DNA from: Pseudomonadota bacterium
GTDB lineage: Bacteria; Bdellovibrionota_F; JAHFAK01; JBDREC01
Direction: 5' to 3'
Assembly: GCA_043820105.1 (NCBI GenBank)
Contig: JBDREC010000103.1
Span: forward strand, 15,405 to 79,404
Length of the DNA: 64,000 nt
Positions 38,266-63,758 of the stretch are shown in pieces. Each line of letters opens with the position of its first letter. Position 1 is the stretch's first letter. Position numbers and translations under genes: made by a program. The notes below the pieces were generated by a model, which made no database searches, had not been told where the DNA came from, and saw only the letters and a program-made list of their open reading frames with translations.

Positions 38266-38269
38266 AATT

Positions 38270-40192: not shown

Positions 40193-40222
40193 ATAATCCT
40201 TAAATAAATTAGTTAATAATAT

Positions 40223-41212
40223 TTAAATAGAATCCGAGATGATACTTTTTACAATTTCAAAAATGTCAATTCCACTTTCTGCGGCGGCTGCTACAAATCC
40301 AGCATCTGGAGAAAGACATGGATTAATATTGATTTCAAGTACAAATGGATTATTGTTTTTATCAATTCTAAAATCAACCCTTGCATAACCCATAACATCA
40401 AAAACATTCCAACACTTTACAGATATATTTCTAAGTTTTTTTAATAAGGTATAATCTTTTTTCTCAAATTTAAAATTCCGCTTTGTATTGATATATTCAA
40501 AGGACTGTTCATCCCATTTTGCTTTATAAGCAATAATTTTAGGTTTATTTTCAGGAAAATTAATAAATTGAATTTCAGCACACGGCAAAACTGTTGGTGT
40601 TTTCTTTTGATTTCCAAGCAAAGCGATGTTAAATTCTCTGCCATCAATATATGATTCAATAAAATATTCATTTAGAATTATTTTATTTTTGTTCTTGTAC
40701 TTTATTAAGTCATTTTTTGTATAAAAAACAGACTTATCATTTAAGCCTTTTGATGCATGATCATAAATAGATTTTAATATATATGGGGGTTCAAATGAAA
40801 TATTATCATTTGATAAATCACTTAACAAAACCGAATTAGGAGTAGAAACATTATTTAGGCGTAATAATTTTTTTAATAATAATTTGTTTGTTGTTAAATT
40901 AAAGGTAAAAGCTTTTGAGCCTGTATATTTTATTCCCATTGAATCAAGCAATGCAGGAATGATAGCAGCAAGATTATCTTTATTTGCAATTGACTCAACC
41001 AAATTAAAAACAAATGATATTTTATTTTCTTTTAATTTTATTAATAGCTTTTCTAGGTTAAGGTTTACAGGAATTTCAATTGGATGATAAGCAAGCTTGC
41101 TTAAAGCATTTTTAATATATTTAACTTGAGTATATGTATCAAGATCATCTAAGGATGATTGAGAAGATAATTTGCCATATAATATTCCAATATTTTTCAT
41201 GTCTTGTTTCAT
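40223..41212 (-). CDS. ATP-grasp ligase, D-Ala-D-Ala ligase-like
   Basis: ATP-grasp C-terminal motifs (YIDGREFNIALLG; YARVDFRIDKNNNPFVLEININPCLS); 4-nt overlap with upstream ATP-grasp gene. Confidence 0.65.
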   Translation of the reverse strand: MKQDMKNIGILYGKLSSQSSLDDLDTYTQVKYIKNALSKLAYHPIEIPVNLNLEKLLIKLKENKISFVFNLVESIANKDNLAAIIPALLDSMGIKYTGSKAFTFNLTTNKLLLKKLLRLNNVSTPNSVLLSDLSNDNISFEPPYILKSIYDHASKGLNDKSVFYTKNDLIKYKNKNKIILNEYFIESYIDGREFNIALLGNQKKTPTVLPCAEIQFINFPENKPKIIAYKAKWDEQSFEYINTKRNFKFEKKDYTLLKKLRNISVKCWNVFDVMGYARVDFRIDKNNNPFVLEININPCLSPDAGFVAAAAESGIDIFEIVKSIISDSI

Positions 41213-42183
41213 TTAATTCTTTTTTTTGCAAAATAAATTATTTTACTGATTAATTCTTCATAAGAAATATTTACTTTTTTACAAAGTATTATAAGATCTC
41301 CGACAACAGGATGTATGCCAGCCAAGGGATTTACTTCTAAAAAATTTGGTCTGCCATATTTATCACTTTTAATGTCTATTCTTCCAGCATCCCTACAACC
41401 TAAAACTTTCCAGGCATTTAAAGCAAGATTCATTGCCAGCCTTGCTTCTTCATCATTAACAAGATTATATTCGACTCTATCTAAATAGTTTTCTTTATTT
41501 GAATAAGTATAAAGCTCTTTTTCCGCGTTTTGATTTAGCAATATTTCTAATGTACCAATTGCTTCTGCCTCATCGCCTGTTCCTATGATTCCAACTGTAA
41601 ATTCTCTGCCTGGTAAAAAATCTTCAGCTAAAACAGGTTGCGAGAAATTTTTTAGTAAATTTTCTGCCATTGATTTTAGCTGATCAATATTTTCAACTTT
41701 TGAAAGATGAGATATCCCTTTTCCAGTGCCTTCTGCAAGAGGTTTAACAATAATAGGGAAGTTTAAATTAAAATTATCTATATCCTTAATATCTTCAATA
41801 ATAAAAAAATCAGGTGTTAATAATTTTGCATCTCTTACAATTCTTTTAGTCATTGCCTTATGAAGGGTTAATGATAAAACCAAAGGATCAGAAAATGTAT
41901 AGGGGATATTATAAGCATCAAGGATTGCAGGAACTTGAGCTTCCCTTCCAAAACCCTTAACACCTTCTGCAATATTAAAGACCAGATCCCATTTTTCTTC
42001 CTTGCATAGTCTTGAAACAAGGTTTTTTATGTGTCCAATTCTTGTAGTTTGATGCCCTAAACTTTTTAGTGTAGTGTCTATTGCATCAATAGTTGCTAGT
42101 TGATCAAATTCCGCAACTTCTTCTTTTCCATAACCCATTTCTAGATAATCATCTTTTAGATCATATGTAATTCCAATATGCAT
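41209..42183 (-). CDS. ATP-grasp ligase, D-Ala-D-Ala ligase-like
   Basis: GREFTVGIIGTGDEAEAIGTLEIL and GRIDIKSDKYGRPNFLEVNPLAG match Ddl-family ATP-grasp patterns. Confidence 0.65.
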   Translation of the reverse strand: MHIGITYDLKDDYLEMGYGKEEVAEFDQLATIDAIDTTLKSLGHQTTRIGHIKNLVSRLCKEEKWDLVFNIAEGVKGFGREAQVPAILDAYNIPYTFSDPLVLSLTLHKAMTKRIVRDAKLLTPDFFIIEDIKDIDNFNLNFPIIVKPLAEGTGKGISHLSKVENIDQLKSMAENLLKNFSQPVLAEDFLPGREFTVGIIGTGDEAEAIGTLEILLNQNAEKELYTYSNKENYLDRVEYNLVNDEEARLAMNLALNAWKVLGCRDAGRIDIKSDKYGRPNFLEVNPLAGIHPVVGDLIILCKKVNISYEELISKIIYFAKKRIK

Positions 42184-42219
42184 TGGAAACTCCTTTTTAA
42201 AATATTTATTTTAATAAAA

Positions 42220-43527
42220 TTATTTTGATTTAGCTTTTTTGTTTAAGGGATATTTATAAAGTAATCCTTTATAATTTTTAAGGATGATATCATTTTCATT
42301 GATACTATCAACATAATTGGGAAGAAGTGGTATTTTACCACCACCATCAGGCGCATCAATAACAAATGTTGGAATAGCATACCCACTTGTATGCCCTCGT
42401 AAGCCATTTATAATTTCAAGACCTTTTTCTATGGGGGTTCTGAAATGAGCTGAACCCACAATTGGATCACATTGATATAGATAATAGGGTCTAACACGAA
42501 TTTTTAGTAAATTATGAAAAAGTGTTTTCATTGTTTTAATATTATCATTAATCCCTGCAAGCAAAACTGTTTGACTTCCAAGAGGGATACCATAATCAGC
42601 TAATCTGTTGCATGCTTGACTAACTTCAGGTGTTATTTCATTCGGGTGAGTGAAATGAATACTTAAATATAAAGGTTGATATTTTTTAAGTATCCTTAAT
42701 AAATTTATTGTAATACGCTGAGGTAATACTACAGGTGCCTTGGTTCCTATGCGAATTATCTCAACATGAGGAATTTGTCTGAGTCTACTGAGTAAATATT
42801 CAATTTTATTATCTACAACAATGAGCGGATCTCCTCCTGACAACAATACATCTCTGATATTTTTATTTTGTTCTATATAGTTTAAAGCTTTTTCCCAATA
42901 ATTAACTTTAAAACGATATTTATCATTTGGTCTCATGATTCGAGATCGAGTACAATATCTGCAATTTGAGGTGCAAAATTTTGTTACTAAAAGTAAAACC
43001 CTATCAGGATATCTATGAACAATTCCAGGAACTGGACTGTCTTTATCTTCGCCAAGGGGATCAAAGTTTTCTTCTGGAGAATGTATGAGTTCTTTAGTTA
43101 TAGGAATTACAGTTTTTTTGATGTAACTATTTTTTGCCAGGCTTGCATAATAGGGGGTCATTGTAACTAAAAACTTATTTTCAAACAATGATATAGCTTT
43201 TTTTTCATCTTCACTTAATTTTATTATTTTTTCTATTTTTGAAAGACCGTGCACTCTGTTTTTCAATTGCCATTGCCATGAATTCCAATCATTATTACTG
43301 GCTTCAGGATAATATTTATTTCTAAATTCATCTGATGTTGAACTTATTGTAAAAAATTCATTTGCTTTTGAATCCCTCTTGTCTAAATAATTTATAGATA
43401 GGATACCATTCTGTAATGAATTTGTTTCTAAAGAATTGGAATTTATTAGATTACTAGCAAGTAAATTATTCTCAATAGAAAGTGGCGGAGGCTCTCCATC
43501 TTCTAAACCGATTATTTTATTTATCAT
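42220..43527 (-). CDS. Lysine 2,3-aminomutase-family radical SAM enzyme (KamA/AblA/EpmB-like) with approx 80-aa N-terminal extension
   Basis: WQWQLKNRV ... TPYYASL N-terminal signature; CxxxCxxC as CTSNCRYCTRS; extension rich in Asn/Ser/Leu. Confidence 0.75.
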   Translation of the reverse strand: MINKIIGLEDGEPPPLSIENNLLASNLINSNSLETNSLQNGILSINYLDKRDSKANEFFTISSTSDEFRNKYYPEASNNDWNSWQWQLKNRVHGLSKIEKIIKLSEDEKKAISLFENKFLVTMTPYYASLAKNSYIKKTVIPITKELIHSPEENFDPLGEDKDSPVPGIVHRYPDRVLLLVTKFCTSNCRYCTRSRIMRPNDKYRFKVNYWEKALNYIEQNKNIRDVLLSGGDPLIVVDNKIEYLLSRLRQIPHVEIIRIGTKAPVVLPQRITINLLRILKKYQPLYLSIHFTHPNEITPEVSQACNRLADYGIPLGSQTVLLAGINDNIKTMKTLFHNLLKIRVRPYYLYQCDPIVGSAHFRTPIEKGLEIINGLRGHTSGYAIPTFVIDAPDGGGKIPLLPNYVDSINENDIILKNYKGLLYKYPLNKKAKSK

Positions 43528-43751
43528 ATAAAACTATCTTAAAAATTAATAAAAGTTTATTTATTTATGTGACTATTACTATAAAATATCTTTAAGGAAG
43601 TAAATAGAATAATTATATAAACATAAAATATTATTAAAATAAGGCCTGCGGCTACAATTTTTATCAATATAATCAATTCCAATAGAATTTAAAATTTAGA
43701 ATTAATTGCCGGATAAAATAAATCATACGCTTGTTTTGTGTCTAGTTCTAG

Positions 43752-44557
43752 TTAGATTCTGCCTAAAAAGTGGGCAAAATAAATTGTAAAAAACTTCAGG
43801 ATTTTAAATGTCTTTATTTAAAAAACAATTTCATTATAAGTTAGATTATATTTTCCGCAATAATATTTATAGCAAAAAAGGCTGGAATATTACCTGTTTC
43901 AGCCCTCAATATCCACAAGCTAAACCAAGACGCTTTATATTAAAAGAAATCGCAGTAAAATAAAGCTGCAATCGAAAATTTAATTTCCCACGATATCTAC
44001 ATCTGCAAAAACCGTATCCTCTTTTCAATGCTGATATCGTTCCCTCAATCGCATTTCTATTTTTCATCTCTTCTTTATACTCATCTGTCTTCATCAACTT
44101 TCTTGCTTCATCATGATCGACTACTCTCTGTCGCCAGACTGATAACAATTGATAACTAAAACCTGCATATTCCAGGTCAAGCTCTAATGCAATTTTCCAG
44201 TCTAATCTAAATATCAGATTTTGAATCGTTTGCCTGTCAGGAAGCTTTTCCAGAAACTGTAATATTGTTACACACATTAATAACCTCGGTGACACTGGTG
44301 GTCTTCCACCTTCTTTATACATCTGTTCGAAATCAGTATCTAATATTTTGGGAAATATAAATTCATGACATACCTTCACATGATCTCTGATTTCTGGAAA
44401 CACATTTAACATGATACCCGCCTTGAATAATGATTGTTGATTGTACTTTGATAAGTCCTTTGGCATCTATATTATATAAGCATTATCTGCACTTTGTAAA
44501 GATCTTGAGCTTAATTATTTGCTTAATATTTTAGCCCACTTTTTAGGCAGAATCTAA
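43752..44557. mobile_element. Internally deleted IS5/IS1182-like element (approx 806 bp) with perfect 24-bp terminal inverted repeats
   Basis: TTAGATTCTGCCTAAAAAGTGGGC at 43752-43775 is the exact reverse complement of 44534-44557; encloses a transposase ORF lacking the catalytic core. Confidence 0.75.
43906..44466 (-). pseudogene. Truncated transposase: IS5/IS1182-like N-terminal domain fused to C-terminal tail, DDE core missing
   Basis: N-terminal GRPPVSPRLLMCVTILQFL ... (DUF772-like) joined to C-terminal AIEGTISALKRGYGFCRCRYRG ... NIKRL; only 186 aa. Confidence 0.6.
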
Positions 44558-44712
44558 TTAAATTTTAAACCTATATCTTTGTAAATTGTTATTAAATTTT
44601 TAGTTTTGCTCTGACCCTAAAATTCCCAAAATTCCAACCATAAAATTCTGACCAAAATTTAAAAATTATTCTAAAATTATTGGCAATTGTAGAATGTCAA
44701 ATCCTAATCATA

Positions 44713-45000: not shown

Positions 45001-45301
45001 AATTACCACCTTTATAACTGAATAACGCTGAGAAGATACGCAACAGTTAGTAGCTTTTCATACTTACTTCTATTAATCTTTAACCTGATAGGTTACCTAT
45101 TTTAGTTATCACCTCGTGTGTGGGTTCTAATGCATGTGACCGAACAAACACTTAGGAAATAGAATTAAACTATGCAAAACCAAAAATATTGTCAATGTGG
45201 AATATTGTCAATTATATTTTCTTCACTAACTGAGCAGGTAGTAGTTATGGGACTGACATGCGTATTAATAATCAAGATTATGCATTAGAAAAAAATTCAA
45301 A

Positions 45302-45320
45302 GGGGTCAGGCCTTGACAAT
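45302..45320 (+). repeat. REP-like element copy (GGGGTCAGGCCTTGACA core) upstream of RAYT gene
   Basis: Same core at 45397-45420 (direct) and 46567-46588 (inverted). Confidence 0.5.
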
Positions 45321-45396
45321 AGACAACAAATCAATAATTTTACTGAAAAATATAGCTAACTTTTGAAAATACATGAAATTATCAATATTAGAAATA

Positions 45397-45420
45397 GGGG
45401 GGGGGCAGGCCTTGACATTC
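45397..45420 (+). repeat. REP-like element copy (GGGGGCAGGCCTTGACATTC) upstream of RAYT gene
   Basis: Core CAGGCCTTGACA shared with 45302-45320 and the inverted copy at 46567-46588. Confidence 0.5.
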
Positions 45421-45589
45421 GGCAGCAGGTTCCCTTTTATACAAAGTGTTTTTTTCCTTTAATTCTTTTTCTTTCTCCATTTTTAAGACAAATCTATAAA
45501 GACTTTGAGCTACTGAAGCATTATTAATTGAACTCTGTTTGAATATTAAGCTCCATATATTTAGGAACTAATCAATTTAGGGGTAATTT

Positions 45590-46582
45590 ATGCCTAGACC
45601 TAAAAGAATTGAATATGAAGGTGCTTGGTATCACGTCATGAATAGAGGTGCTAGCAAGAAAAACATTTTTCATTCACATGATGACAGGAACTTTTTTTTA
45701 AAAATGCTAGCGCATGTCAGTGATCAATGGAATTTTCAGACACATGCCTATTGTTTAATGACAAATCATTATCATTTGCTTGTGCATACACCAAATCTTG
45801 GCTTGTCAGAAAGTATGCGACATCTTTCTTCAATTTATACAATGAGATATAATAAGAAATATAAAAGGGATGGAGCATTGTTTAGAGGTAGATTCAAATC
45901 AATATTGTTAGATAGGGATGATTGTGCATCAGCAATATTAAGATACATTCACCAAAATCCCGTAAAGGCAGGTTTATGTAAAAATGTAGAATCATACAAG
46001 TGGTCTAGTCACAGAGCATATTTAAATGAAAAAAATAAACCGTCATTTCTATATACAGATGAGATATTGAAAGATTTTGCAAAGATTAGTTCTAAGGCAA
46101 GGCGAAAATTGCATGAGTTTGTGACTGGAAGAGAATCTAAAGATTTTATTAACTCTATAGAAGGGCCAAGACCTGTATCTGTAATGGGATCAGAGGGTTT
46201 TAGAGATTGGATAAAAGATAATTATTTATATAAAGTAAACAAAGATAAGTTAATTTCAACAGCAAGAAGTAATAAGCGCCCTGAAATTATACCAAAGCAA
46301 ATGTTATCATATGTTAGCTCTGAATTCAGTGTCAGTAAAAAAAGCATTATGGAAAATAAGTCTGGATCCATTGCAAATATACCAAGACTGACATATTTAT
46401 ATTTATTGCATAAAATTGCAGGTTTTACACATAATGAAATCGCTGAGATAAGCAAATCAGGAAACAAAGCTTCAGTAGCTCAAAACATTTATCGTTTTTC
46501 AAGGAGATTGGAAGAGGATGAATGTTTGGGCGAAAGGATTAAAGGTATGAAGGGGAATTTGTTGTCGAATGTCAAGGCCTGA
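45590..46582 (+). CDS. REP-associated tyrosine transposase (IS200-like HuH Y1 transposase) with C-terminal HTH-like extension
   Basis: YHVMNRG N-terminus, HuH motif HYHLLVH, catalytic Tyr context RYIHQNPVKAGL; flanked by inverted REP-like repeats. Confidence 0.7.
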   Translation: MPRPKRIEYEGAWYHVMNRGASKKNIFHSHDDRNFFLKMLAHVSDQWNFQTHAYCLMTNHYHLLVHTPNLGLSESMRHLSSIYTMRYNKKYKRDGALFRGRFKSILLDRDDCASAILRYIHQNPVKAGLCKNVESYKWSSHRAYLNEKNKPSFLYTDEILKDFAKISSKARRKLHEFVTGRESKDFINSIEGPRPVSVMGSEGFRDWIKDNYLYKVNKDKLISTARSNKRPEIIPKQMLSYVSSEFSVSKKSIMENKSGSIANIPRLTYLYLLHKIAGFTHNEIAEISKSGNKASVAQNIYRFSRRLEEDECLGERIKGMKGNLLSNVKA

Positions 46583-46588
46583 CCCCTC
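46567..46588 (-). repeat. REP-like element copy in inverted orientation immediately downstream of RAYT gene
   Basis: GAATGTCAAGGCCTGACCCCTC is the reverse complement of the upstream REP core; overlaps the RAYT stop region. Confidence 0.5.
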
Positions 46589-49050: not shown

Positions 49051-49260
49051 ATGACATTTCAGAAAAGATTGCTTTATTTGAGAAAAAGAAACTGCTTAAC
49101 GATTAGGCAGGTGAGTGAAAAATTGGGGGTTTCACAATCAACTTATTTTCAGTGGGAAGTTGAATCGTTTCCTACGAAGCCGGTTTATTATAAGATGTTG
49201 GCTATGCTTTATGAGTTGGATCTTGAGATGTTGATGTTTGGGGATAAAAAAGACTGTTAA
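49051..49260 (+). CDS. XRE-family helix-turn-helix transcriptional regulator (69 aa)
   Basis: LTIRQVSEKLGVSQSTYFQWE HTH pattern; GAGG RBS; its 3' portion is duplicated at 50752-50890. Confidence 0.6.
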   Translation: MTFQKRLLYLRKRNCLTIRQVSEKLGVSQSTYFQWEVESFPTKPVYYKMLAMLYELDLEMLMFGDKKDC

Positions 49261-49338
49261 TTTGAATTGTTTTATATTATTATTTATTCCAATTAATTAT
49301 AACAATTTAAACTTAAGTTTATGCATATGGAGCTAATA

Positions 49339-50748
49339 ATGACCAAAAAAGAACTGGATTTAATTTTACATGAAGGGGAAAACTATAAAATCGAGTTCAA
49401 AGAAAATGTTAACTCTGATTTGTCAAAAGAAATGGTTGCTATGGCAAATTCATCTGGAGGTAGGATATTTATTGGGATTAATGATAAAAACGAAGTAATA
49501 GGTGTGAAAGCAACAAATGCTTTGTTATCTAAAATTCAGAATATGGCCCAGGATTGTGATCCCTCAATTATTATCAACATTAATACTTATAAAAATATTT
49601 TAATTATTAATGTTAAAGAAGGTTTAAATAAACCATATCGCTGTAGTAAAGGTTTTTATACTAGGAATGGTTCAAATTCACAGAAAATGACAACCAGAGA
49701 GATAACTGAATTTGTGCAAGCAGAAGGTAATGTTAGGTTTGATGAAAAGCTTCGGGAAGATATAAATATAAGTAAAAAAATTAAAAAAGAACTGCTTAAT
49801 CATTATTTGCAATTAGCAAACATTAATAAGACAATGGATGATGAATTTATACTAGAAAATTTAGGAGTACTGGAGCAAAAGAATAAGAAATCATATCTTA
49901 ATAATGCTGGGCTATTGTTTTTTTGCGATTCTACTAACCCACATCTTCATTATGCAAATATTACTTGTGCTTTATACAAGGGCAGTGAAAAGCTAAATGT
50001 TTTGGACAGAAAAGATTTTTCATCTGATATAATTTCTAATATCGAAGATACCATGTTGTTTTTGAAAAAGCATTTAAATCTTAGATATGAAATAACATCA
50101 TTAAGAAGAAAGGAAATTCTTGAGCTGCCTGAAGTTGCTTTGCGTGAAGCAGTAGTCAACGCTGCTTGCCACAGAGACTATTTTGAAAAAGGTGCCAATA
50201 TTATGGTTGAGATATTTGATGATAGGGTCCAAATAACTAACCCTGGTGGATTGCCTAAAGGCTTGTTACCAGAAAAATTTGGAACCAGAAGCGTATCAAG
50301 AAATCCTTTAATCACTTCATTGTTCCATCGTGTTGGCTACATTGAAAAAATGGGAACAGGTATAGGTAGAATAAGAAAGTCCCTCAAGGAATCAGGTAAT
50401 TCAGAAGCTGTATTTGAATATGACAGTTTTTTTTCAGTGATATTTAAAAGATCTATCTTAGAAAATGGAGCTAGTTCAGACATACAAGTTACCGGACAAG
50501 TCACCGGACAAGTTCCCGAACATGTCACCAAACTACTTAGTATATGCAAAGGAGAGTTGTCTCGTAGTGAATTGCAGGATATATTAAAATTAAAGCACAG
50601 AGAGAACTTTGTGAATTTATATCTAAACCCAGCATTGGAATCTGCTTTTATCGAAATGACAATTCCAGGCAAACCAAGATCAAGCAAACAAAAATACCGC
50701 TTAACAAAAAAAGGGAAAGATTATTTAAAGAAACTGCCTGAAAATTAA
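49339..50748 (+). CDS. Schlafen/AlbA_2-like domain protein with HATPase_c_4-like domain and C-terminal wHTH (COG2865-type regulator)
   Basis: N-terminal KELDLILHEGENYKIEFKE ... ANSSGGRIFIGIND; central REAVVNAACHRDYF ... NPGGLP ... SRNPLI ... MGTGIGRI; VTGQVTGQV linker repeat; start at ATG 49339 with GGAG RBS. Confidence 0.6.
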   Translation: MTKKELDLILHEGENYKIEFKENVNSDLSKEMVAMANSSGGRIFIGINDKNEVIGVKATNALLSKIQNMAQDCDPSIIININTYKNILIINVKEGLNKPYRCSKGFYTRNGSNSQKMTTREITEFVQAEGNVRFDEKLREDINISKKIKKELLNHYLQLANINKTMDDEFILENLGVLEQKNKKSYLNNAGLLFFCDSTNPHLHYANITCALYKGSEKLNVLDRKDFSSDIISNIEDTMLFLKKHLNLRYEITSLRRKEILELPEVALREAVVNAACHRDYFEKGANIMVEIFDDRVQITNPGGLPKGLLPEKFGTRSVSRNPLITSLFHRVGYIEKMGTGIGRIRKSLKESGNSEAVFEYDSFFSVIFKRSILENGASSDIQVTGQVTGQVPEHVTKLLSICKGELSRSELQDILKLKHRENFVNLYLNPALESAFIEMTIPGKPRSSKQKYRLTKKGKDYLKKLPEN

Positions 50749-50752
50749 GCAC

Positions 50753-50890
50753 GTGAGTGAACGAATAGGTGTTTCGCAGTCAACTTATTTCCAGTGGGAG
50801 GTTGAATCGTTTCCAACGAAGCCGGTTTATTATAAGATGCTGGCTAAGCTTTATGGGTTTGATGTTGATAGGTTGATGTTTGGGGGGTGA
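50753..50890 (+). pseudogene. Duplicated 3' fragment of the xre-like gene (approx 85% identical to 49100-49260)
   Basis: Direct nucleotide comparison; begins right after the Schlafen-like gene stop; lacks the 5' part of the HTH. Confidence 0.55.
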
Positions 50891-52980: not shown

Positions 52981-54804
52981 TTAATTAATTCTTTTTAAAT
53001 ATACATGTACTTGTTCATAAATTTCCTTATAAGTTCCATCTTTCTTCAACCAGTTATTTGTATCAGTAGATATCCAATCTTCTTTTTTATATTCTTTTTT
53101 TCCTTCCTTTTTTACATCTAATCTATTTTGTAATGAATTGATAATTTTTAAAATATAGTTATCAAAATCTTCTCCAATCTCCAAGCAATACTGTGAATTT
53201 TTTGAAATATATTTTTGACCGTGTAATGTTTTAAGTTTATCTTTTAAATTATCAATAGTTGAAATACTATTAATATCATTTTTGAAAAAATAGATTGCAC
53301 TCAAAGCAAGTATTACATCATTTATATAATTATTTTGAAGAATTTCATACTTCATAATATTATTGTTTTTTATCTGATTAATCTTTTCTGATATTCTATA
53401 AGATAGCATTAATTTATGAAATTGGTCTTCTTCATTTATTGTCATGCTAAAAATATTATCATAACAATGATCTGAAAAAACAAGTTTATATCTTCCTTTT
53501 GTAGATATTGGTATTTGGAGAAAAAAAGACATAAAAGATATTCCAATATCTATGTTCTTAATCTTTAAATGCAAAGGACTTTTACCAAAAGGATTACGGT
53601 ACTTGCTTTTTTCAACAGTTGCCCATTCACCGTCCTTTTTGTCATAAAAGATTCCAACATCATCAAGGAATTTAAAAATTTTAACTTGTATTCTATCACC
53701 TGAATGTAGATCTCTTGTGCTAATAGCATTTTGACTATTACTGGCAACAGCAATATCCTTTGAAATTTTTGAAATTTTTGATTTTTTATTTATTTTTGTA
53801 AGTCGCATTAGAATCTGTACATTGTCAGGCAATTCGTTTACAATTCTTGTTAATGTCTTTGTAGTCTGTCCACCATTAACAATTTGAAAATTAGTAATCT
53901 GTAGTTTATTTTCATTTAATATCTTAAAGTCTTCACATATTGAATTGATACCATTGTTTAATATCCAAAAATTGGAACGACTACCTTTTGAGTATTCGTG
54001 TTTAATTTTTGAATTGATTTCATTTTCTCCTTTATAATAACGGACATTTAAAGCTAAAATCATCTCTTTATGTTTTTCTATTATAGGCCTCAAGGAGTTC
54101 GCTTTTATACTCGTAACAATAGTTTCAATTTCGGTTTTATCGTTATCATCATAAAAGTTTGAACATTTTTTAAAATATTCTTTTTCTACAATATCTATGA
54201 TTATTTCATTTTTAGGCATTTCAGTATCATCATAAAGCATTTCAAGACGGTTATAGTCAAAAAAATCAGGATAAAAATTAATTCCTTTATCTTCATAATT
54301 AGTGAATAATGCCATTATGTCAGTTTTGATATTGGTAGAATCAAAGGTGTTGTCTATATAATAAAAGTAAATATTATAATTATTATTTTCAATATTTTGA
54401 GGTGTTAATAAAGTATTAATTTCGTTATCAATTATTTTTTGTAACTTTTTGTTCGGTTTTTGCTCATCATAATTTATTTTTAAAAGCCGATCTATAAATT
54501 TTTTATTTTTTCTAATCTCATCTGTATTTAATAGATTATTATTTGAATATTTGAATTGAAATACATATATATCATGGTTATTTTGATTAGTAAAAATAGC
54601 ATCATTCCCTAAATCATTTGACATATCAACAATGTGCTCTTTAATGAACTCATTAATGTCTATGCCATCGTAGTCAAATTCAATTATTTTCCTGCTAAAA
54701 CACTCTTTAATAATAAAATGACCAAATGCTGTACCATCATTAGGATAATTAAAGGTTTCTCTTAAATCTGAAACCTGATCTTTTATTCTTTCATAAAAAC
54801 TCAT
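52981..54804 (-). CDS. AIPR-like abortive-infection family protein (putative)
   Basis: N-terminal restriction-endonuclease-like region (YDGIDI ... GNDAIF ... IYVFQFKYS) and central FQIVNGGQTTKTL motif as recalled for AIPR; start set at ATG 54804 with AGGAGA RBS. Confidence 0.45.
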   Translation of the reverse strand: MSFYERIKDQVSDLRETFNYPNDGTAFGHFIIKECFSRKIIEFDYDGIDINEFIKEHIVDMSNDLGNDAIFTNQNNHDIYVFQFKYSNNNLLNTDEIRKNKKFIDRLLKINYDEQKPNKKLQKIIDNEINTLLTPQNIENNNYNIYFYYIDNTFDSTNIKTDIMALFTNYEDKGINFYPDFFDYNRLEMLYDDTEMPKNEIIIDIVEKEYFKKCSNFYDDNDKTEIETIVTSIKANSLRPIIEKHKEMILALNVRYYKGENEINSKIKHEYSKGSRSNFWILNNGINSICEDFKILNENKLQITNFQIVNGGQTTKTLTRIVNELPDNVQILMRLTKINKKSKISKISKDIAVASNSQNAISTRDLHSGDRIQVKIFKFLDDVGIFYDKKDGEWATVEKSKYRNPFGKSPLHLKIKNIDIGISFMSFFLQIPISTKGRYKLVFSDHCYDNIFSMTINEEDQFHKLMLSYRISEKINQIKNNNIMKYEILQNNYINDVILALSAIYFFKNDINSISTIDNLKDKLKTLHGQKYISKNSQYCLEIGEDFDNYILKIINSLQNRLDVKKEGKKEYKKEDWISTDTNNWLKKDGTYKEIYEQVHVYLKRIN

Positions 54805-54903
54805 AATAAATCTCCTATTTAAAAATTCAATTGTATCTATCATGTCATGAATTAATAGTCAAAATTCACTCAAGCTAATTAAAAAATTTGGTTCTCGTCC
54901 GTC

Positions 54904-55506
54904 TTACGATAACAACTTCGCGATAGATGGAACTATAAGATCGTGACTTAAACCTTGAGTATGCCGGGCGGAATGATCCAGATCAGGCATCTGGTTTTTT
55001 ATACATTTTGATTCCGTGTGATAATAAATATTATTCAATGCACCTTCGTGTATAAAACGCTTTTTAAGATTTGCTATATTTTTTTTATTTGAACCTCCCC
55101 AGACATACCATCTCCATGGAAAGACTCTATTTTCAGAATCACATTTGGGAGGTTTATCATAATTCGACAGTTCGATAATTGCTTCATCTAGTGAGGGATT
55201 ACATAAGTAAAACAAATTCTGAACCTGAATATATGAATTTCTGGAATATGTTTTGTTAGAATATTCATAGGCTTTTTCAACGATTGAACGAACATTCGGT
55301 AATAGTTTGTCATTTGACAGTTTAATTTTTTGAATTCCCGATATTGACAGATCAGTGGGTTTTGCAGAACCCGGGTTCTTTCCTGCAATTGCTCCAATGC
55401 ATGTATCGTTTGCTTCAGGTTTTGCAATAGATTCAAGATATATTCTTGTATCAAACCTGAAAATATTGGAGCCATCCTTTTTAAATATTGCCCAATAGAA
55501 AGCCAT
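54904..55506 (-). CDS. DUF1643-like protein
   Basis: CIGAIAGKNPGSAKPTD, IQVQNLFYL and WYVWGG resemble the DUF1643 pattern recalled from memory; GAGGTG RBS. Confidence 0.4.
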   Translation of the reverse strand: MAFYWAIFKKDGSNIFRFDTRIYLESIAKPEANDTCIGAIAGKNPGSAKPTDLSISGIQKIKLSNDKLLPNVRSIVEKAYEYSNKTYSRNSYIQVQNLFYLCNPSLDEAIIELSNYDKPPKCDSENRVFPWRWYVWGGSNKKNIANLKKRFIHEGALNNIYYHTESKCIKNQMPDLDHSARHTQGLSHDLIVPSIAKLLS

Positions 55507-55872: not shown

Positions 55873-56142
55873 TTAGCTATTTGCAAATCTTAATCCCATA
55901 AAAGGTATTTCTTCAATTTCAAGATCCTTCCATCCAGTATATCCAAAAACCATATCTGATAATTTTCCCTTTATACGGTATTCATCATAGACTTTTTTTC
56001 CTTCTGTGCTGGCGAAGATAACCTTACCTTTTATCACTATATTTTTGTTGGAATCTTTCTTTTTTTCCTTAAAATTATCCAGCAAAACAAAAGTATTAGG
56101 ATACATTTTTTTAATTTCATCCCATGTCATTAGTTCTTCCAT
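55873..56142 (-). CDS. Hypothetical small protein (89 aa)
   Basis: ORF only. Confidence 0.3.
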   Translation of the reverse strand: MEELMTWDEIKKMYPNTFVLLDNFKEKKKDSNKNIVIKGKVIFASTEGKKVYDEYRIKGKLSDMVFGYTGWKDLEIEEIPFMGLRFANS

Positions 56143-56306: not shown

Positions 56307-58727
56307 ATGATTAACAAAGGAAAACTGGTGAATATGATGGATACTAAATATGGTTTTTCACATTTGCATTTGCATACCCAATATAGTCTGCTGGATTCAA
56401 CAATAAAAATAAGTGATCTTATAGAAACAGTTAAAAAACTAGACATGGACTCTGTAGCAATTACAGACCATGGAAATCTTATGGGAGCGATTGAATTCTA
56501 CAAGGAAGCAAAAAAACAGGATATAAAAGCAATTATAGGCTCTGAGGTTTATATTGCACAAACTGGGCGTTTTGATAAAAGTACAAAACTGCATCATCAT
56601 CTTGTTCTGCTCGCGGAAAACAATACTGGGTACATTAATCTCATAAAACTTGTCAGCATAGGATATACAGAAGGATATTATAATGTCCCAAGAATAGACA
56701 ACGAAGTTTTAAGGCAACATTCTGAAGGACTAATAGGACTATCTGGTTGTATGGGTGGAGAAATTCCGCATTACATTTTAAGAGATGAACTTTCCACAGC
56801 AATTAAAGCTGCAATGGAATATAAAACAATTTTTGGAGCTGAAGCATTTTATCTTGAACTTCTGGAAACAGGATTGTCAGGTCAGAAAAAAGTAAATGAC
56901 GGACTTATTCATATATCAAAAGAATGTAACATTCCCCTTGTTGCTACTAACAATTGTCATTATTTAAAAAAAGAAGAGCATCAGGTTCATGCAGTTTTAT
57001 CGTGTATTCAAGCAGGGAAAACATTAGATGAAATCGAAATTGAAACTGATCAGCTATATCTGAAATCAGCACATGAAATGCTGGACCTTTTCAAGGATCA
57101 TCCTGAAGCAATCCAAAACACAAAGAAAATTGCAGACAGATGCAACGTAGAAATTGAACTTGGCAGGAAACAGCTGCCTCATTTTCAGACACCGGAAAAA
57201 ATTTCTCATGCAGCTTTTCTTGAAAAACTTGCCTTTGAAGGATTGGATATGAGATTTGACACAATTATAAGCGATAGGAACATATCAAAATACACTAAGA
57301 GATTGAAACATGAACTTGAAGTTATAAATAACAAAGGATTTGCTGCATATTTCCTTGTGGTCTGGGATTATGTAAAATATGCCATGGAAGCAGGGATTCC
57401 AGTGGGACCTGGAAGAGGTTCCTCTCCAGGTTGTCTTGTTGCTTATTTGCTAGGAATAACAGACATTGATCCGGTAAGATACAGCCTGCATTTTGAAAGG
57501 TTTCTGAATCCTGACAGGGATATATTGCCTGATTTTGATATAGACTTCGGCTACGATCAAAGGGATGAAGTTATAGAATACATTACAAAAAAGTGTGGGA
57601 AAAACAAGGTATCCAAAATAATAACATATGTAACTTTCAGAGCAAGAAGTGTCATCAGGGATGTAGGAAGAGCTCTTAATATTCCATATGACGAGGTTGA
57701 TAAGGTAGTAAAGCTTTTATCTGAATTTTTTGATATGAGTCTTGAAAGAGCATTAGAGCTTAAACCAGAACTTAATAAAATACATGAAAAAAACAAAATA
57801 TACCAGGATCTAATTAGGTTTTCATTCACATTAGAGGGACTTAAGCGTCACACAGGTGTTCATACATGTGGCATTGTAATATCTCCAAAAGCACTTACCC
57901 AATATATTCCATTATATTGCAACACATCTGGTGATCAGATAAGTCAGTTTACAAAAGATGAACTGGAAGATATAGGACTTGTAAAATTTGATATTCTTGG
58001 TCTTAAAGCATTAACCGTTTTGGATAATGCCTGTAAACTGATAAATAAAAATGGTGATGAAATATTTGATATAAAACAAATACTACATGATGATCCAAAA
58101 GTATTTGAACTGCTTACATCAGGAAACACATCAGGTGTTTTCCAGTTTGAAAGTTGTGGAATTAAGGATATCATAAAAAAGATAAAACCAGACTGTTTTG
58201 AAGATATAATTGCAGCTTACGCATTATACAGACCAGGTCCATTAGCCAGCGGCATGACAGAAGATTTTTGGAAAAGAAAACATGGACTCATTGCAAGCAA
58301 TTATCCACATCCAAAGCTTGAAGATATTTTAAAAGTAACATATGGAATTATTGTCTACCAGGAACAGATAATGGAAGCAGCTTCAAGAATTGCAGGATTG
58401 CCTTTTCAACAGGCGGATATTTTACGCAGAATAATGGGCAAGAAGAAAGCCAATCAAATAGAAAAGCAAAAGGAAATCTTCGTAGAAGGTGCCAGGAAAA
58501 ATGATATATCATATGAAAAAGCAAATGAGATATTTGATCTTTTAGAATATTATTCAGGATACGGTTTCAACAAGGCACATGCTGCAGCTTATGCATTGAT
58601 CTCATACAGATGCGCATATCTTAAATGTCATTATCCTATGGAATATTCTGCAGCCTTAATATCTTCAGAAAAAGATAACCCTGAAAAGGCATTGAGATAT
58701 CTTAAGGAATGGAAAAGCATGAATTAA
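56307..58727 (+). CDS. dnaE: DNA polymerase III alpha subunit (DnaE), C-terminally truncated: PHP domain and polymerase core only (806 aa)
   Basis: PHP motif FSHLHLHTQYSLLD; polymerase-core GYGFNKAHAAAYALISYRCAYLKCHYP; ends about 45 residues after this motif, where a full-length DnaE would continue for several hundred residues. Confidence 0.7.
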   Translation: MINKGKLVNMMDTKYGFSHLHLHTQYSLLDSTIKISDLIETVKKLDMDSVAITDHGNLMGAIEFYKEAKKQDIKAIIGSEVYIAQTGRFDKSTKLHHHLVLLAENNTGYINLIKLVSIGYTEGYYNVPRIDNEVLRQHSEGLIGLSGCMGGEIPHYILRDELSTAIKAAMEYKTIFGAEAFYLELLETGLSGQKKVNDGLIHISKECNIPLVATNNCHYLKKEEHQVHAVLSCIQAGKTLDEIEIETDQLYLKSAHEMLDLFKDHPEAIQNTKKIADRCNVEIELGRKQLPHFQTPEKISHAAFLEKLAFEGLDMRFDTIISDRNISKYTKRLKHELEVINNKGFAAYFLVVWDYVKYAMEAGIPVGPGRGSSPGCLVAYLLGITDIDPVRYSLHFERFLNPDRDILPDFDIDFGYDQRDEVIEYITKKCGKNKVSKIITYVTFRARSVIRDVGRALNIPYDEVDKVVKLLSEFFDMSLERALELKPELNKIHEKNKIYQDLIRFSFTLEGLKRHTGVHTCGIVISPKALTQYIPLYCNTSGDQISQFTKDELEDIGLVKFDILGLKALTVLDNACKLINKNGDEIFDIKQILHDDPKVFELLTSGNTSGVFQFESCGIKDIIKKIKPDCFEDIIAAYALYRPGPLASGMTEDFWKRKHGLIASNYPHPKLEDILKVTYGIIVYQEQIMEAASRIAGLPFQQADILRRIMGKKKANQIEKQKEIFVEGARKNDISYEKANEIFDLLEYYSGYGFNKAHAAAYALISYRCAYLKCHYPMEYSAALISSEKDNPEKALRYLKEWKSMN

Positions 58728-58778
58728 AAGATCAACTATGACAAATTGCACACATAAATCTCATCAGGACAGAGATAT

Positions 58779-60287
58779 TCAAGGAAGGGCACAGATGTTC
58801 TCCAGCTCCTCCAAAAGTTTCACCATCGCCAATGTATCCTGACCACAATAAACTTTAAGAGCCTTGTAGATCTTTTCCTTTATTTCTAATTCAGTTGAAT
58901 CTGAGATCATCTCTAAATATTTAAGTGAGGCTATTCCTCCTTCTCCGATTTCAAGATCGTGGTAATTCATGTTGGGAATAAAAGCAGGGAGCACTTTTTT
59001 AATGGATGCTGAACCCTCCTGATTTGGATGATATAAGAAGCGTTGTTTAAATGGGATCAATAGGTCTTTCATTTTTTGGTTAATTTCTAAAAGCTCCTTT
59101 TTATATTCAGGAAAAGCAGCGGCAAGCGATTTGTTGATAGTAGCTTCAAAAGGTTTATTGTAAACTATGACGGTTCCAGCACATTTGCCATTTTTACAAC
59201 AGGATGAAACAAGCATTTTGACCAAACCTGCTCTTGGATCAGAAAATTCATTGTGCAAATATTCAAGGTGTTCAAGTGTGCCACCCTTTTTTTTCTGGAT
59301 ATGCAGAGAAAACTGAAAGGGAACCTGTCCATAGGGTTTTGTTCCATCAAAAAGCGGAATAGCAGGAAAAATAGTTTCATAATCAAGAAAATATAGGGGA
59401 TATTTTAGCAGTTTTAAAAAATCGTCTATTTTTGCTTTATCCTTATAAATTTCACCATTTTGATAACTTTCAATATCAATTCTTTGTTTGCTGCTAAGAT
59501 CAAGGTCTAAAGGGATATCTCCGACCTTAATAATATTTTGATCTAAAAGTTTTTTAAGCTTATTTTTATTTCTTTTAAATATATTATAGACTGAATATTT
59601 TGGGATGCTACTCCAGCAGTAGTCAATAAAATCACAGTCAAAAGGATTGTTACAATGAGAACCCACAGGAATTTCAAACTCTTCAGACTGGGATAATATT
59701 TTCAAAAACTTCTGCACATTTCTTTTTACTTTAGCTTGTCCTTTAATTGCAGCTTCTGTTACATCTTCAAGAACAAAAAATTCAGAAAGATCAATTTCTC
59801 CATTCTTAATAAATTTATTATTTATATGCATTAATATTGATTTATTGATTTTATAGCCCGCGTTTTCAAAAACATACCGTTGAAAAGCAACATCATCAAG
59901 GTGATATTTTGCAACATGAGTGGATTGCTTAACTTCAATCATGTCCCAGCCCTGACCATCAGCTGCCTTTCTAAGAATATCAATCCTGCAAAACAAGCCC
60001 TCTGTGGTTGAAGCAGTTGCCTCAAAAATAATAGCCGAGCCGCCTGCTATATTTTTTTTCGTGGAATCAATAGCACCAGGAATATTTTTGTAATCTTCAG
60101 TAATCTCAATTCCAGCTTTAAAATATTTCTGTGCGAGTTTCCCAACTTCATGTCCCTGATCAAAAGTATGCTGTAAGGATAAAGGTATTTCTTCAGGTAA
60201 AAGATCTTTTCTGTGTTTATGAAGCCAAAGTCTGAGAGGACATTGGCAGCCTAAAAGATAGTTCGATTTTGAAAGTAAAAGTTGCAT
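58779..60287 (-). CDS. Predicted nuclease: Cas4-like PD-(D/E)xK domain with Fe-S Cys ligands fused to DUF2779-like (DnaQ-like) exonuclease domain
   Basis: N-terminal GCQCPLRLWL, RIDIL ... DMIEVKQS, C-terminal CNNPFDCDFIDYC Cys cluster; second half YFLDYETI ... VPFQFSLH. Confidence 0.5.
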   Translation of the reverse strand: MQLLLSKSNYLLGCQCPLRLWLHKHRKDLLPEEIPLSLQHTFDQGHEVGKLAQKYFKAGIEITEDYKNIPGAIDSTKKNIAGGSAIIFEATASTTEGLFCRIDILRKAADGQGWDMIEVKQSTHVAKYHLDDVAFQRYVFENAGYKINKSILMHINNKFIKNGEIDLSEFFVLEDVTEAAIKGQAKVKRNVQKFLKILSQSEEFEIPVGSHCNNPFDCDFIDYCWSSIPKYSVYNIFKRNKNKLKKLLDQNIIKVGDIPLDLDLSSKQRIDIESYQNGEIYKDKAKIDDFLKLLKYPLYFLDYETIFPAIPLFDGTKPYGQVPFQFSLHIQKKKGGTLEHLEYLHNEFSDPRAGLVKMLVSSCCKNGKCAGTVIVYNKPFEATINKSLAAAFPEYKKELLEINQKMKDLLIPFKQRFLYHPNQEGSASIKKVLPAFIPNMNYHDLEIGEGGIASLKYLEMISDSTELEIKEKIYKALKVYCGQDTLAMVKLLEELENICALP

Positions 60288-60727: not shown

Positions 60728-62083
60728 ATGAACAAAAAAGAACTAGACTTCATTATTAAACAAGGTGAAGGTCAGCATATAGAGTTTAAAGAATCTTTTG
60801 ATAAATCTCTTGTTAAAGAAATAATTGCTTTTGCAAATGCTCAAGGGGGCAGGATTTATTTAGGGATAAATGACAAAGGACTAATAAAAGAAATTAATAT
60901 TACAAATTCCTTGAAATCTCAAATTCAGGATATTGCTAAAAATTGTGATCCTTCAATTCTTGTCAATTTAAGTGCATATAAGAATATATTAATTGTTAAT
61001 GTTCATGAAGGAAATGACAAACCTTATTCTTGTTCAAGTGGATTCTATTTAAGGATGGGAGCAAATACACAAAAGTTAACGCGAGATGAAATCATGCAAT
61101 TTGCCATTTCCGAAGGAAAAAAACTGTTTGATGAGCAAATTTGTGATGATTTTGTTTTTTTAGATGATTTTGATGAAGATAAACTGAAAAGTTACTTAAA
61201 AGAAGCAAAAATTGAAAGCGAGCTTGATAATAAATCAATCCTTTTAAACCTTGGTGTTGCAAAACTTATAAATAAGCAATTCAAATTTACGAATGCTGGG
61301 ATACTATTTTTTGCAAAAAAACCTTCAAAATATTTTATGACAACAAAGGTAGTTTGTGCTGAATATGCAACAAACGAAAAAGTTAAAATATTAGATCGTA
61401 AGATTTATGATGAGGGTATTTTAAAAAACCTAAAAAATGCAATTAACTTTATAAGTAAAAGAATTAAAATAGAATTTGAAATTAAATCTGCTAAAAGAAA
61501 GGAAATCCCACAATTTCCAGAGGAAGCTTTTAGAGAAGCAGTTGTTAATGCCATAATGCATAGAGATTATTTTGATAAAACCTCTGAAATTATGATTGAA
61601 TGTTACAGGAATAAAATTGTTGTTTATAATCCCGGAGGACTTGTCAAATGGTTAAGACCCGAAGAATTTGGAAAAATTAGTAAACTTAGAAACCCTTTAA
61701 TTGCTTCACTTTTATCAAGAACAATATATGCTGAAAAAATGGGAACTGGCATAAAAAGAATGAATAAGGCTATGATCAAAGCCGGATTGAAAGAGCCTGC
61801 TTATGAATATTATGACACTTCTTTTTATACACAATTTGATGATAAAAATATCGAAAAAAGAAAAGGGAAAAGTTCGGTGAAAAGTTCGGTAAAAAGTACG
61901 GTGAAAAGTTCGGTGAAAATTCTTAATCTTATTAAAAAAGATGCATATATTACAATTCCAGAAATCGCTAAAACCCTAAATTTAACAACAAGAGCAATTG
62001 AAAAGCAAATAGCAAACTTAAAAAAAACAGGCAAAATAAAAAGAATTGGCCCTGACAAAGGCGGATATTGGGAGGAATTATGA
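60728..62083 (+). CDS. Schlafen/AlbA_2-like domain protein with HATPase_c_4-like domain and wHTH (paralogue 2)
   Basis: KELDFIIKQGEGQHIEFKE ... ANAQGGRIYLGIND; REAVVNAIMHRDYF ... NPGGL ... RNPLIA ... MGTGIKRM; KSSVKSSVKSTVKSSVK linker from a 15-bp tandem repeat. Confidence 0.6.
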   Translation: MNKKELDFIIKQGEGQHIEFKESFDKSLVKEIIAFANAQGGRIYLGINDKGLIKEINITNSLKSQIQDIAKNCDPSILVNLSAYKNILIVNVHEGNDKPYSCSSGFYLRMGANTQKLTRDEIMQFAISEGKKLFDEQICDDFVFLDDFDEDKLKSYLKEAKIESELDNKSILLNLGVAKLINKQFKFTNAGILFFAKKPSKYFMTTKVVCAEYATNEKVKILDRKIYDEGILKNLKNAINFISKRIKIEFEIKSAKRKEIPQFPEEAFREAVVNAIMHRDYFDKTSEIMIECYRNKIVVYNPGGLVKWLRPEEFGKISKLRNPLIASLLSRTIYAEKMGTGIKRMNKAMIKAGLKEPAYEYYDTSFYTQFDDKNIEKRKGKSSVKSSVKSTVKSSVKILNLIKKDAYITIPEIAKTLNLTTRAIEKQIANLKKTGKIKRIGPDKGGYWEEL

Positions 62084-63138
62084 AGGCCACCAAAGAATCC
62101 AATCCTACCTATCAGAATGCAATTACCATAGTTGAGATATTTCTTTATTTAAAGCAGTTTCCAAGAGGTGTTTTATCATCTCAAATACAAGAGGAATATT
62201 ATCAGGATAAGGATGACAGGACCTTTCATAGAGTTAAAAAAGCCCTGGAAGATTTTCTTTTTGATCCTCAAGGTGATAAGGTATTCTTTTTTGAAGGCGA
62301 GGGTAAAAATCAGACTATACGCTTGCATCCAAAGCATTTTAATACCTCTGATGTAATGGAATGGCATCTCTTTGGTTTAATGATGTCCAATGTAATGATG
62401 ACCAACATCAAGGGTGATGTGGATTCCTCGCCTGATATTAAAAGCGGGGTGCTGCAATTGCGTGATCTTATTGTTAGTAATCTTGAAGCTGATTTTTATA
62501 AGAGTAATGCAGATGGTGAAATAAGCGAAGTTAGAGAAAATCTATTAAATAAAATTAAGAAGAAATATTACTGCAAGAAAGTTGGGCAGAAGATTTATGG
62601 CAAAGATGACAAATCAACTGAGATCCTTGATAAAATTACACAGGCTTTATATAAAGAAAACAAGCTAAAGATTCATAAGTATAAAAATGAAAAAAAGAAA
62701 GACTGGGTATTTTCACCTTATACACTTTTATCATATAATGATGCCTTTTATGTAATGGGAAAGCTTGCAAAGGGCTATATGCTTACCCTTGCTATTGACC
62801 GGATTGATGAGCTTGAAGTTTTGAAGAAAACCTTTAATTATCCCAAAGACTATCATCCCTCAGAGATTCTCAATAAAGGCTTTGGAGTAGGGGACGTGAA
62901 TCAGGAGGCTGTTAAAGTTGAGCTCTTGTTTGACCAGGCTGTTTCCTATCTAATCACAGAACGTTTTTGGCATCATTCACAAATGATTACAGAAAAAGAA
63001 GATGGTTCTGTTTTACTGGAAATGGAAGTGCCTGACAGCTTTGAGTTAAGAAAGTTTGTTTTGAGTTTTGGGTCAAATGTGAAAGCATTAGCGCCAGATT
63101 CGCTTGGACAATTTATTAAAGAAGATAAGAGCAAATAG
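62080..63138 (+). CDS. WYL-domain transcriptional regulator (wHTH-WYL-WCX; BrxR/CapW/PafBC-like)
   Basis: N-terminal wHTH, central WVFSPYTLLSYNDAFYVMGK WYL-like segment, C-terminal WCX-like region; start ATG 62080 overlaps upstream stop as ATGA. Confidence 0.5.
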   Translation: MKATKESNPTYQNAITIVEIFLYLKQFPRGVLSSQIQEEYYQDKDDRTFHRVKKALEDFLFDPQGDKVFFFEGEGKNQTIRLHPKHFNTSDVMEWHLFGLMMSNVMMTNIKGDVDSSPDIKSGVLQLRDLIVSNLEADFYKSNADGEISEVRENLLNKIKKKYYCKKVGQKIYGKDDKSTEILDKITQALYKENKLKIHKYKNEKKKDWVFSPYTLLSYNDAFYVMGKLAKGYMLTLAIDRIDELEVLKKTFNYPKDYHPSEILNKGFGVGDVNQEAVKVELLFDQAVSYLITERFWHHSQMITEKEDGSVLLEMEVPDSFELRKFVLSFGSNVKALAPDSLGQFIKEDKSK

Positions 63139-63232: not shown

Positions 63233-63577
63233 TTAAAAACCTACTTCAGTATTTGAGCGGCCTTGAGAACATGTAGTTCCAACATTTGCACTGCCTTCAT
63301 AGCAGCCACCATTTACAACGGTATTATTGTTATTAGTTCCAGCATTGCAAACACCATAATAAAAACTTCCAGATGTATTTGATGGTCCAGTGTAACATCC
63401 GCGGTTAACGCCTACATTGGCTCCAGTTCCGGTTGAACAATAAGAATCTCCGCTTATTCCACTTCCGGATCCGCAAAGGGTGTTGGATGCTATGCTTCCA
63501 CTTGCACCTGAACCTGTATAGCAATAGTTTAAGCCAGGCAATGAAATGTTTATAAGCTTAGGCGTTAGGTATTTCAT
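63233..63577 (-). CDS. Small Cys/Gly/Ser/Asn-rich protein with conserved MKY... N-terminus (paralogue 2)
   Basis: ATG at 63575-63577 with GGAGA RBS 8 nt upstream; Cys at regular approx 13-residue intervals; paralogue of 44713-45000. Confidence 0.55.
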   Translation of the reverse strand: MKYLTPKLINISLPGLNYCYTGSGASGSIASNTLCGSGSGISGDSYCSTGTGANVGVNRGCYTGPSNTSGSFYYGVCNAGTNNNNTVVNGGCYEGSANVGTTCSQGRSNTEVGF

Positions 63578-63758
63578 TATTTTTTTCTCCAGAATATTAG
63601 AATAAAAACCCAATAATAATGCTCATGTATTTGAGTTCTTTTATTTATTATTTTATACCTATTTGCAAACAAAAAACTATATAAAATTAAAAATATGCAC
63701 TTTTCCATTCTGTGGTATTTTCCTGATAGTTTTGAATATAGTTAAATATTATGTTTAC

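Follow-up and report, generated by a model that had tools for sequence, protein, structure and literature searches.

In the 64-kb window analysed here (a stretch of 64,000 nucleotides from contig JBDREC010000103.1 of assembly GCA_043820105.1, a metagenome-assembled genome (MAG) of a Pseudomonadota bacterium, with positions counted from the first nucleotide of the stretch), the open reading frame (ORF) at 56307-58727 covers the 5' 70% of a replicative polymerase gene of the DnaE1 type. The homology to dnaE ends at a structural breakpoint, and the DNA beyond it leads into the 3' end of a convergent DUF2779 gene. Most probably we are dealing with a common gene remnant or with a mis-join in the assembly, and not with a novel type of polymerase. 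There is no sign of a new biological mechanism. Both mis-joined contigs and dnaE genes that are truncated or broken into fragments are already known.

The same ORF is deposited at NCBI as MFH1729778.1 under the name 'MAG: DNA polymerase III subunit alpha [Pseudomonadota bacterium]', with the start placed at Met11 (position 56337), on a contig of 123,279 nt. Scanning the translated ORF against Pfam gave matches to the PHP domain (PF02811, 179 bits, residues 19-185), DNA_pol3_alpha (PF07733, 307 bits, residues 304-565) and DNA_pol3_finger (PF17657, 205 bits, residues 569-732), and no match to HHH_6 (PF14579) or to an OB domain. In NCBIfam, the ORF matched positions 5-801 of the 1146 positions of the DnaE model NF004226 with 1064.2 bits (equivalog cut-off 1002), scored 560.8 bits with the model for the error-prone DnaE2/ImuC (NF004225, cut-off 939) and was far under the cut-offs of the PolC models. 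Compared with solved structures it aligned without interruption to residues 6-803 of the E. coli alpha subunit and to the T. aquaticus alpha subunit up to residue 863. The motifs PDFDIDF, KFDILGL, GPGRGS, ADILRR and FNKAH were all kept, and the first two, which carry the catalytic aspartates, aligned with their counterparts in both alpha subunits.

Among the 120 best database matches 117 were longer than 1100 residues (mostly 1140-1175), and according to precomputed Pfam lists HHH_6 was present in all 117 of these long homologues and the OB domain in most of them. In 8/8 full-length homologues that were scanned again, HHH_6 began at the aligned position of the stop codon of the ORF, and no homologue with the architecture of the ORF was found among the matches listed. 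The only match to the clamp-binding pattern Q..[LMIF]F in the ORF was QKEIF at residue 721, within the fingers, and the nearest homologue has its clamp-binding motif (QLNLF) at residue 908, i.e. in the part that is missing here. Given that (HhH)2, the beta-clamp motif, the OB fold and the tau-binding C-terminal domain (CTD) are lost, the fragment would not, judging from what is known of the family, be able to act as a processive replicase.

None of the known functional architectures stops short of (HhH)2 as this protein does, and the natural variants that have been surveyed keep PHP-Pol3-(HhH)2. In a survey of about 2000 genomes (Timinskas et al., PMC3919608), PHP-Pol3-(HhH)2 was the nearly universal core of the C-family polymerases, natural short variants had lost the CTD or OB and CTD together and not (HhH)2, and a clamp motif followed (HhH)2 in 99% of DnaE1. 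Fragmented dnaE genes were in the same survey usually due to frameshifts, and some were sequencing or assembly errors. A 2026 survey (PMC12926913) discarded truncated sequences and described no form ending before (HhH)2, and in neither of the two surveys was a precedent found for a DnaE split without an intein.

The position of the break could be narrowed down closely (Table 1). Homology to DnaE includes the final codon (N806), as seen by comparison with a homologue that has the same unusual 'MN' at this point. None of the three forward frames encoded DnaE-like sequence 3' of the stop codon, a second in-frame stop followed 10 codons further on, and in tblastn the alignments of full-length homologues to the window terminated at 58724-58733. 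Since the homology extends through the final codon and is continued in no frame thereafter, the junction is a structural breakpoint and not a frameshift or a nonsense mutation; the break was placed between 58,722 and 58,778 because N806 is still homologous and no later frame is DnaE-like. With regard to the protein, the ORF (C-terminus ...LKEWKSMN) ends at the junction of the fingers and the beta-binding HHH_6, one residue past the conserved Met of '..MGI.VLPPD..'.

These results bear on an initial annotation of the window, which had proposed that dnaE ends prematurely, inside a conserved block, about 45 residues after the motif GYGFNKAHAAAYAL and 52 nt from the neighbouring gene. The premature end was borne out by the NF004226 match that breaks off at 801/1146, the lack of HHH_6 and OB and the length of the homologues, and the suggested alignment with full-length DnaE sequences placed it where HHH_6 starts in the homologues. 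The stop codon is located as described relative to the motif (residues 751-764), although the exact distance is 42 residues. The spacer measured 51 nt, and the end falls at a domain junction instead of within a conserved block. As possible origins the annotation had named an insertion into dnaE, a decayed island-borne second copy and an assembly chimera, with no preference among them; this was a reasonable list, and it is borne out in part.

A hairpin was not found in the spacer (z = +1.4), nor was a terminator-like site, no copy of the junction sequence was found elsewhere in the window, no attachment (att) site or insertion sequence (IS) end was detected, and the junction contained zero Ns and no low-complexity run. 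No tRNA gene was found in the window, nor did any Rfam family reach its gathering score anywhere in it, a self-splicing intron at the junction included. A frameshift or read-through in dnaE was rejected, as no DnaE-like frame was found past the stop codon. An interruption by an intein or intron was likewise rejected: the split site of cyanobacterial dnaE lies 53 residues upstream, no intein sequence is present and there was no Rfam match.

Table 1. Positions of the truncated dnaE, the breakpoint and the flanking genes in the window.
Feature	Position	Strand	Length	Description
AIPR/AbiU gene	52981-54843	-		Upstream flank, divergent from dnaE
Unannotated ORF	54904-55506	-	200 aa	No match in Pfam, NCBIfam or PADLOC
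Candidate defence gene PDC-M08A (PADLOC)	55873-56142	-	89 aa	Full-length match, E 2.6e-12; directly upstream of dnaE
Truncated dnaE ORF	56307-58727	+	806 aa	PHP, palm/thumb and fingers only
Breakpoint zone	58722-58778	.		Last DnaE-homologous codon AAT (N806); TAA at 58725-58727; 51-nt spacer at 58728-58778
DUF2779 gene	58779-60287	-	502 aa	Complete and convergent; Cas4-like PD-(D/E)xK + DUF2779 (RNase H-like exonuclease fold)
SLFN/AlbA_2-HATPase_c_4-wHTH gene	60728-62083	+		Downstream flank
WYL-WCX regulator gene	62068-63138	+		Overlaps the last 16 nt of the 60728-62083 gene

The missing part of the gene was searched for inside and outside the window. With eight C-terminal homologue queries in tblastn, the C-terminal part of DnaE (including OB and CTD) was absent from the whole 64 kb. 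A stand-alone C-terminal piece was searched for in a 50% representative library with the last 361 residues of the nearest homologue as query, and many proteins of about 350 residues that start with 'MGI.VLPPD' were returned. These are gene-calling fragments that start at a conserved internal Met, mostly from contigs of 1-5 kb, and 0/10 AT-rich candidates that were looked up belonged to this MAG. Neither a second dnaE nor a detached C-terminal part from this MAG turned up in these searches, which were not exhaustive.

Two apparent cases of short dnaE genes were rejected in the course of this search. In an 856-aa homologue (P0036, locus L005) the gene is broken in place, with an OB-containing 271-aa ORF directly downstream, and it was not accepted as a short form. 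In locus L011 (positions 1530-1560 of ENA ERZ24794648 NODE_135799), an unrelated AT-rich contig from a metagenome, dnaE is broken at the same codon position as here. An A7 run in that contig (GCAAAAAAATGAAT) gives an ATGA stop/start overlap, and the run is also a slippery sequence. The dnaE of this locus was only 53% identical to the query and the remainder of the gene follows directly; the locus was not accepted as a case of natural splitting at this codon, in view of a one-base deficit in the A7 run, and given a coverage of only 2.7x this break is likely an error. A separate observation was a stand-alone C-terminal DnaE piece (P0388, GAB6099314.1 / WP_459841215.1), a 384-aa 'hypothetical protein' that starts within the FNKSHSAAYA region and is encoded on a 1.44-Mb contig of Halanaerocella petrolearia, which could reflect a split or broken dnaE in that genome.

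Regarding the origin of the fragment, the GC content at third codon positions (GC3) was 0.249 for dnaE and 0.276 for the DUF2779 gene, and the codon usage of both matched that of the housekeeping genes. The closest non-self match of the DnaE fragment was 54% identical, and for GltX encoded on the same contig as MFH1729778.1 (MFH1729734.1, also within the window) the best matches were 55-57% identical. With best matches at only these levels for the two proteins, the lineage is an isolated one; no relatives above 54% were present in the collections searched, and none above 45% in species-representative genomes or JGI metagenomes. The neighbourhood of the nearest homologue (a nadB-like gene upstream, 23S_rRNA_IVP and CSD genes downstream) had nothing in common with the window. 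DnaE proteins of plasmids and phages reached at most about 45% identity to the fragment, which is below the chromosomal matches, and a plasmid or phage origin was therefore rejected. In all, the fragment looks native in type, and its distance to homologues is that expected of a vertically inherited gene.

The fragment was further compared with about 117 homologues at columns that are at least 95% conserved. Mismatches were found at 14.8% of these columns in the DnaE fragment (other homologues: mean 1.2%, maximum 7.1%) and at 8.5% in GltX (others: mean 1.0%, maximum 9.2%). When phmmer scores against distant PDB outgroups were expressed relative to those of three homologues, which for DnaE were trimmed to the same length as the fragment, the values were about 84% for DnaE and about 92% for GltX, and the corresponding relative Pfam bit scores were 0.86-0.89 and 0.93-0.95, respectively. 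By all three measures, which agree, the DnaE fragment appears to be about twice as far from its family consensus as the single control GltX. The near-invariant positions that were changed (39/264) were evenly spread along the protein, and the changes D216N, G31S, P75A, G442V, A520T/A521C and S757A affected residues that are invariant in all homologues.

The first of these substitutions concerns the metal-ligand Asp of the PHP motif 'ATND', which is invariant in 117 homologues and Asn here, and because a metal ligand is replaced the PHP site of the fragment may be inactive. The PDB alignments also showed that the T. aquaticus entry 3E0D has Asn at the equivalent of position 216, where entry 2HPI has Asp. 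The intact PHP domain and polymerase core of the initial annotation can accordingly be kept as far as the presence of the domains is concerned, but not with respect to this PHP metal ligand. The same annotation had listed a decayed copy among the possible origins, which is not supported by 806 codons that contain 0 internal stops or frameshifts and by catalytic motifs that are kept. In simulations of neutral drift, the frame was still open in 47%, 19%, 4% and 0.3% of cases at 0.5, 1, 2 and 3% nucleotide divergence, respectively. Given these odds and a frame that is nevertheless open, the extra divergence would have arisen while the frame was still under selection. Either the truncation is recent, or the ORF is still selected, or the junction is not real.

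The gene on the other side of the junction is complete. Its product matched the full DUF2779 profile (PF11074, 140 bits, 6.5e-41), and its C-terminus is intact, since position 638/650 of the UU173-family model was reached at residue 489/502. The combination of a Cas4-like region with DUF2779 is an architecture that has been described for this family (PMC3985635, PMC13621843). The Cas4 model scored 17.4 bits, under its cut-off of 22.7, and the PADLOC matches to Cas4 were weak. The convergent gene that had been annotated as Cas4-like/DUF2779 is thus well supported for DUF2779, and the Cas4 part reaches only a sub-threshold score.

The window is chromosomal, with housekeeping genes (scpA/scpB, trpS, gltX, surE, pcm, tolB, pal) at 1-20 kb. 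From about 32 kb it becomes variable over 20 kb or more, and this region carries many defence genes and remnants of transposases. Within it the dnaE fragment has accessory genes on both flanks and lies in divergent or convergent orientation to each neighbour; the unannotated 200-aa ORF on the upstream side may be a partner of the PDC-M08A candidate. On the downstream side, a 126-aa ORF rich in Gly, Ser, Cys and Asn (63233-63613, minus strand) had no match to a Pfam or NCBIfam family.

Some additional features of the variable region were observed. The SLFN/AlbA_2-HATPase_c_4 gene of the downstream flank has a paralogue at 49321-50748, and the two differ in their C-termini (winged helix-turn-helix (HTH) versus Fic-like_C). 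A 159-nt direct repeat with 86% identity (49085-49243 and 50727-50885) brackets the paralogue with Fic-like_C and looks, as judged by eye, like a short coding segment for an XRE-type HTH that is present twice. An ORF for a Y1 (IS200-like) transposase at 45590-46582 encodes 330 aa, of which a 112-residue Y1 domain was matched, and inverted hairpin repeats of the GGGGTCAGGCCTTGACA type surround it (45301-45331 and 45401-45442 versus 46545-46587), so that the locus as a whole (45301-46587) resembles a REP/RAYT arrangement. An IS remnant at 43749-44560 consists of 31-nt, 94% identical inverted repeats around a 186-aa fragment of a DDE transposase, and a full-length IS5-like transposase gene is located separately at 32617-33705. 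The cluster at 35593-43527 contains genes for two radical-SAM proteins, an adenosine-deaminase-like protein, a GNAT protein, two D-Ala-D-Ala-ligase-like ATP-grasp enzymes and a lysine-2,3-aminomutase-like radical-SAM enzyme, and may serve to modify small molecules or peptides.

The explanation that we favour, tentatively and with less than even confidence, is a real rearrangement that left a non-essential truncated copy of dnaE while a working polymerase gene is present elsewhere in the genome. A structural rearrangement would have cut a native dnaE between 58,722 and 58,778 and placed it against the unrelated, complete DUF2779 gene inside the variable region of defence and mobile genes. The break would be real and recent, and the fragment, which keeps the polymerase active site, would be a non-essential truncated copy or a remnant, with the working dnaE presumed to lie at another locus. 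This explanation was preferred because accessory genes lie on both flanks, the divergence is in excess, neither a repeat nor a shift in composition marks the junction and (HhH)2 is known from almost all members of the family. It also agrees in part with the island-borne copy of the initial annotation: defence or mobile genes do flank the fragment on both sides, but the gene is native in type and is not a plasmid or phage DnaE. An insertion into dnaE, likewise proposed there, is possible, except that the 3' part was not recovered within the 5.3 kb downstream of the junction or anywhere else in the window. Several observations weigh against a truncated copy. The junction is known from one assembly only, no second dnaE of this MAG was found among the 120 best database matches, and the only NCBI match of similar AT-rich composition is from Atribacteria. 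The excess divergence was measured against a single control gene, GltX of the same contig, and an open frame of 806 codons demands either a very recent truncation or continued selection.

The same observations can to some extent be explained by an assembly mis-join within one genome or population, in which the true dnaE is intact and the assembled path jumps from codon 806 to another locus; we consider this somewhat unlikely. The occurrence of the junction in a single assembly (the protein cluster has 1 member, on 1 contig) and the failure to find another dnaE of the MAG would be expected from such an event, an essential gene that is cut and still perfectly open with intact catalytic motifs is artefact-like, neither a terminator nor any other 3' signal of native appearance is present in the spacer, and dnaE fragmentation in databases is often ascribed to sequencing or assembly error (PMC3919608), with L005 and L011 as two examples met in the present analysis. 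On the other hand, the junction has no repeat, low-complexity run or N and shares its sequence with nothing in the window, the composition does not change across it, the upstream flank is accessory too, which would leave dnaE in an island even without the junction, and the extra divergence from the consensus would be unexpected for a normal sole replicase. Uniform codon usage and GC3 across the junction led us to reject a chimera between genomes as unlikely, and of the assembly chimera that had been suggested initially only a mis-join within one genome is still tenable.

It is quite improbable that a deep-branching, AT-rich lineage uses a stand-alone PHP-Pol3 polypeptide for its replicase or for an accessory polymerase, whether as half of an intein-less two-gene enzyme divided exactly between Pol3 and (HhH)2 or as a clamp-independent mini-polymerase in a defence island. 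A real two-piece DnaE, with (HhH)2-OB-CTD expressed from another locus and associating with the PHP-Pol3 protein without an intein, is improbable, even though the cut is exactly at a domain junction, where HHH_6 begins and directly after the conserved Met, the ORF is intact with a conserved active site, and the best matches include no further dnaE of the MAG. Against it, the 64 kb contain no C-terminal piece, none of the ten AT-rich C-terminal candidates came from this MAG and most of the matches of about 350 residues were gene-calling fragments, there is no intein and the cyanobacterial split site is further upstream, and the surveys offer no intein-less precedent. A stand-alone PHP-Pol3 'mini-DnaE' with a role of its own (in repair or in a defence island), for which binding to the clamp and tau would not be needed, is very improbable. 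The frame that has stayed open despite about twofold divergence, which neutral drift rarely allows, the location between defence genes and the D216N change, which suggests altered constraints, are all in line with it. However, no PADLOC defence model matched the DnaE fragment, the architecture was not seen among the matches listed, all neighbours are convergent or divergent, which leaves no gene to form an operon with it, (HhH)2 is found almost throughout the family (PMC3919608), and the ORF stops 1-2 codons past the end of homology, as it would after an accidental break in AT-rich DNA.

If the break were real and this dnaE the only one, replication would have to proceed with a polymerase that has no (HhH)2 and clamp parts, or with a two-piece enzyme, and either would, if true, be of interest to replication biologists. 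At present the value of the observation is mainly that of an annotation and quality flag, as MFH1729778.1 passes the equivalog cut-off and yet encodes only 70% of the enzyme, and the contig junction at about 58.72-58.78 kb bears on what is inferred about gene content and completeness from this MAG.

Compared with known forms of DnaE, the fragment resembles the canonical DnaE1 of E. coli, T. aquaticus and M. tuberculosis in that PHP, palm, thumb and fingers can be aligned over their whole length, and differs from it by the loss of (HhH)2, clamp motif, OB and CTD and by the changes at 39/264 near-invariant positions. In the split-intein DnaE of cyanobacteria the N-terminal polymerase part likewise has an ORF of its own, about 800 residues long, but there the split is at GYG|FNK (PMC3919608), which corresponds to Q753 here and lies 53 aa upstream of the end of the fragment. 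It is at Q753 that the match to NF007079 ends and that to NF005616 starts, and the fragment continues with 53 aa of extein and no intein. Cyanobacterial DnaE-N ends in an intein half and is accompanied by a gene for DnaE-C, neither of which was seen here. The short DnaE3 and DnaE2 proteins of Thermotogae, Tenericutes and some DnaE2 groups similarly have C-terminal domains missing (OB and/or CTD), but they keep (HhH)2 and most of them co-occur with PolC or DnaE1 (PMC3919608), whereas the present fragment is DnaE1-like and loses (HhH)2. Finally, dnaE genes fragmented by frameshifts or errors also give short proteins, and L011 even breaks at the same codon position; in these cases (L005, L011) the rest of the gene follows directly in another frame, whereas the present fragment is followed by unrelated DNA.

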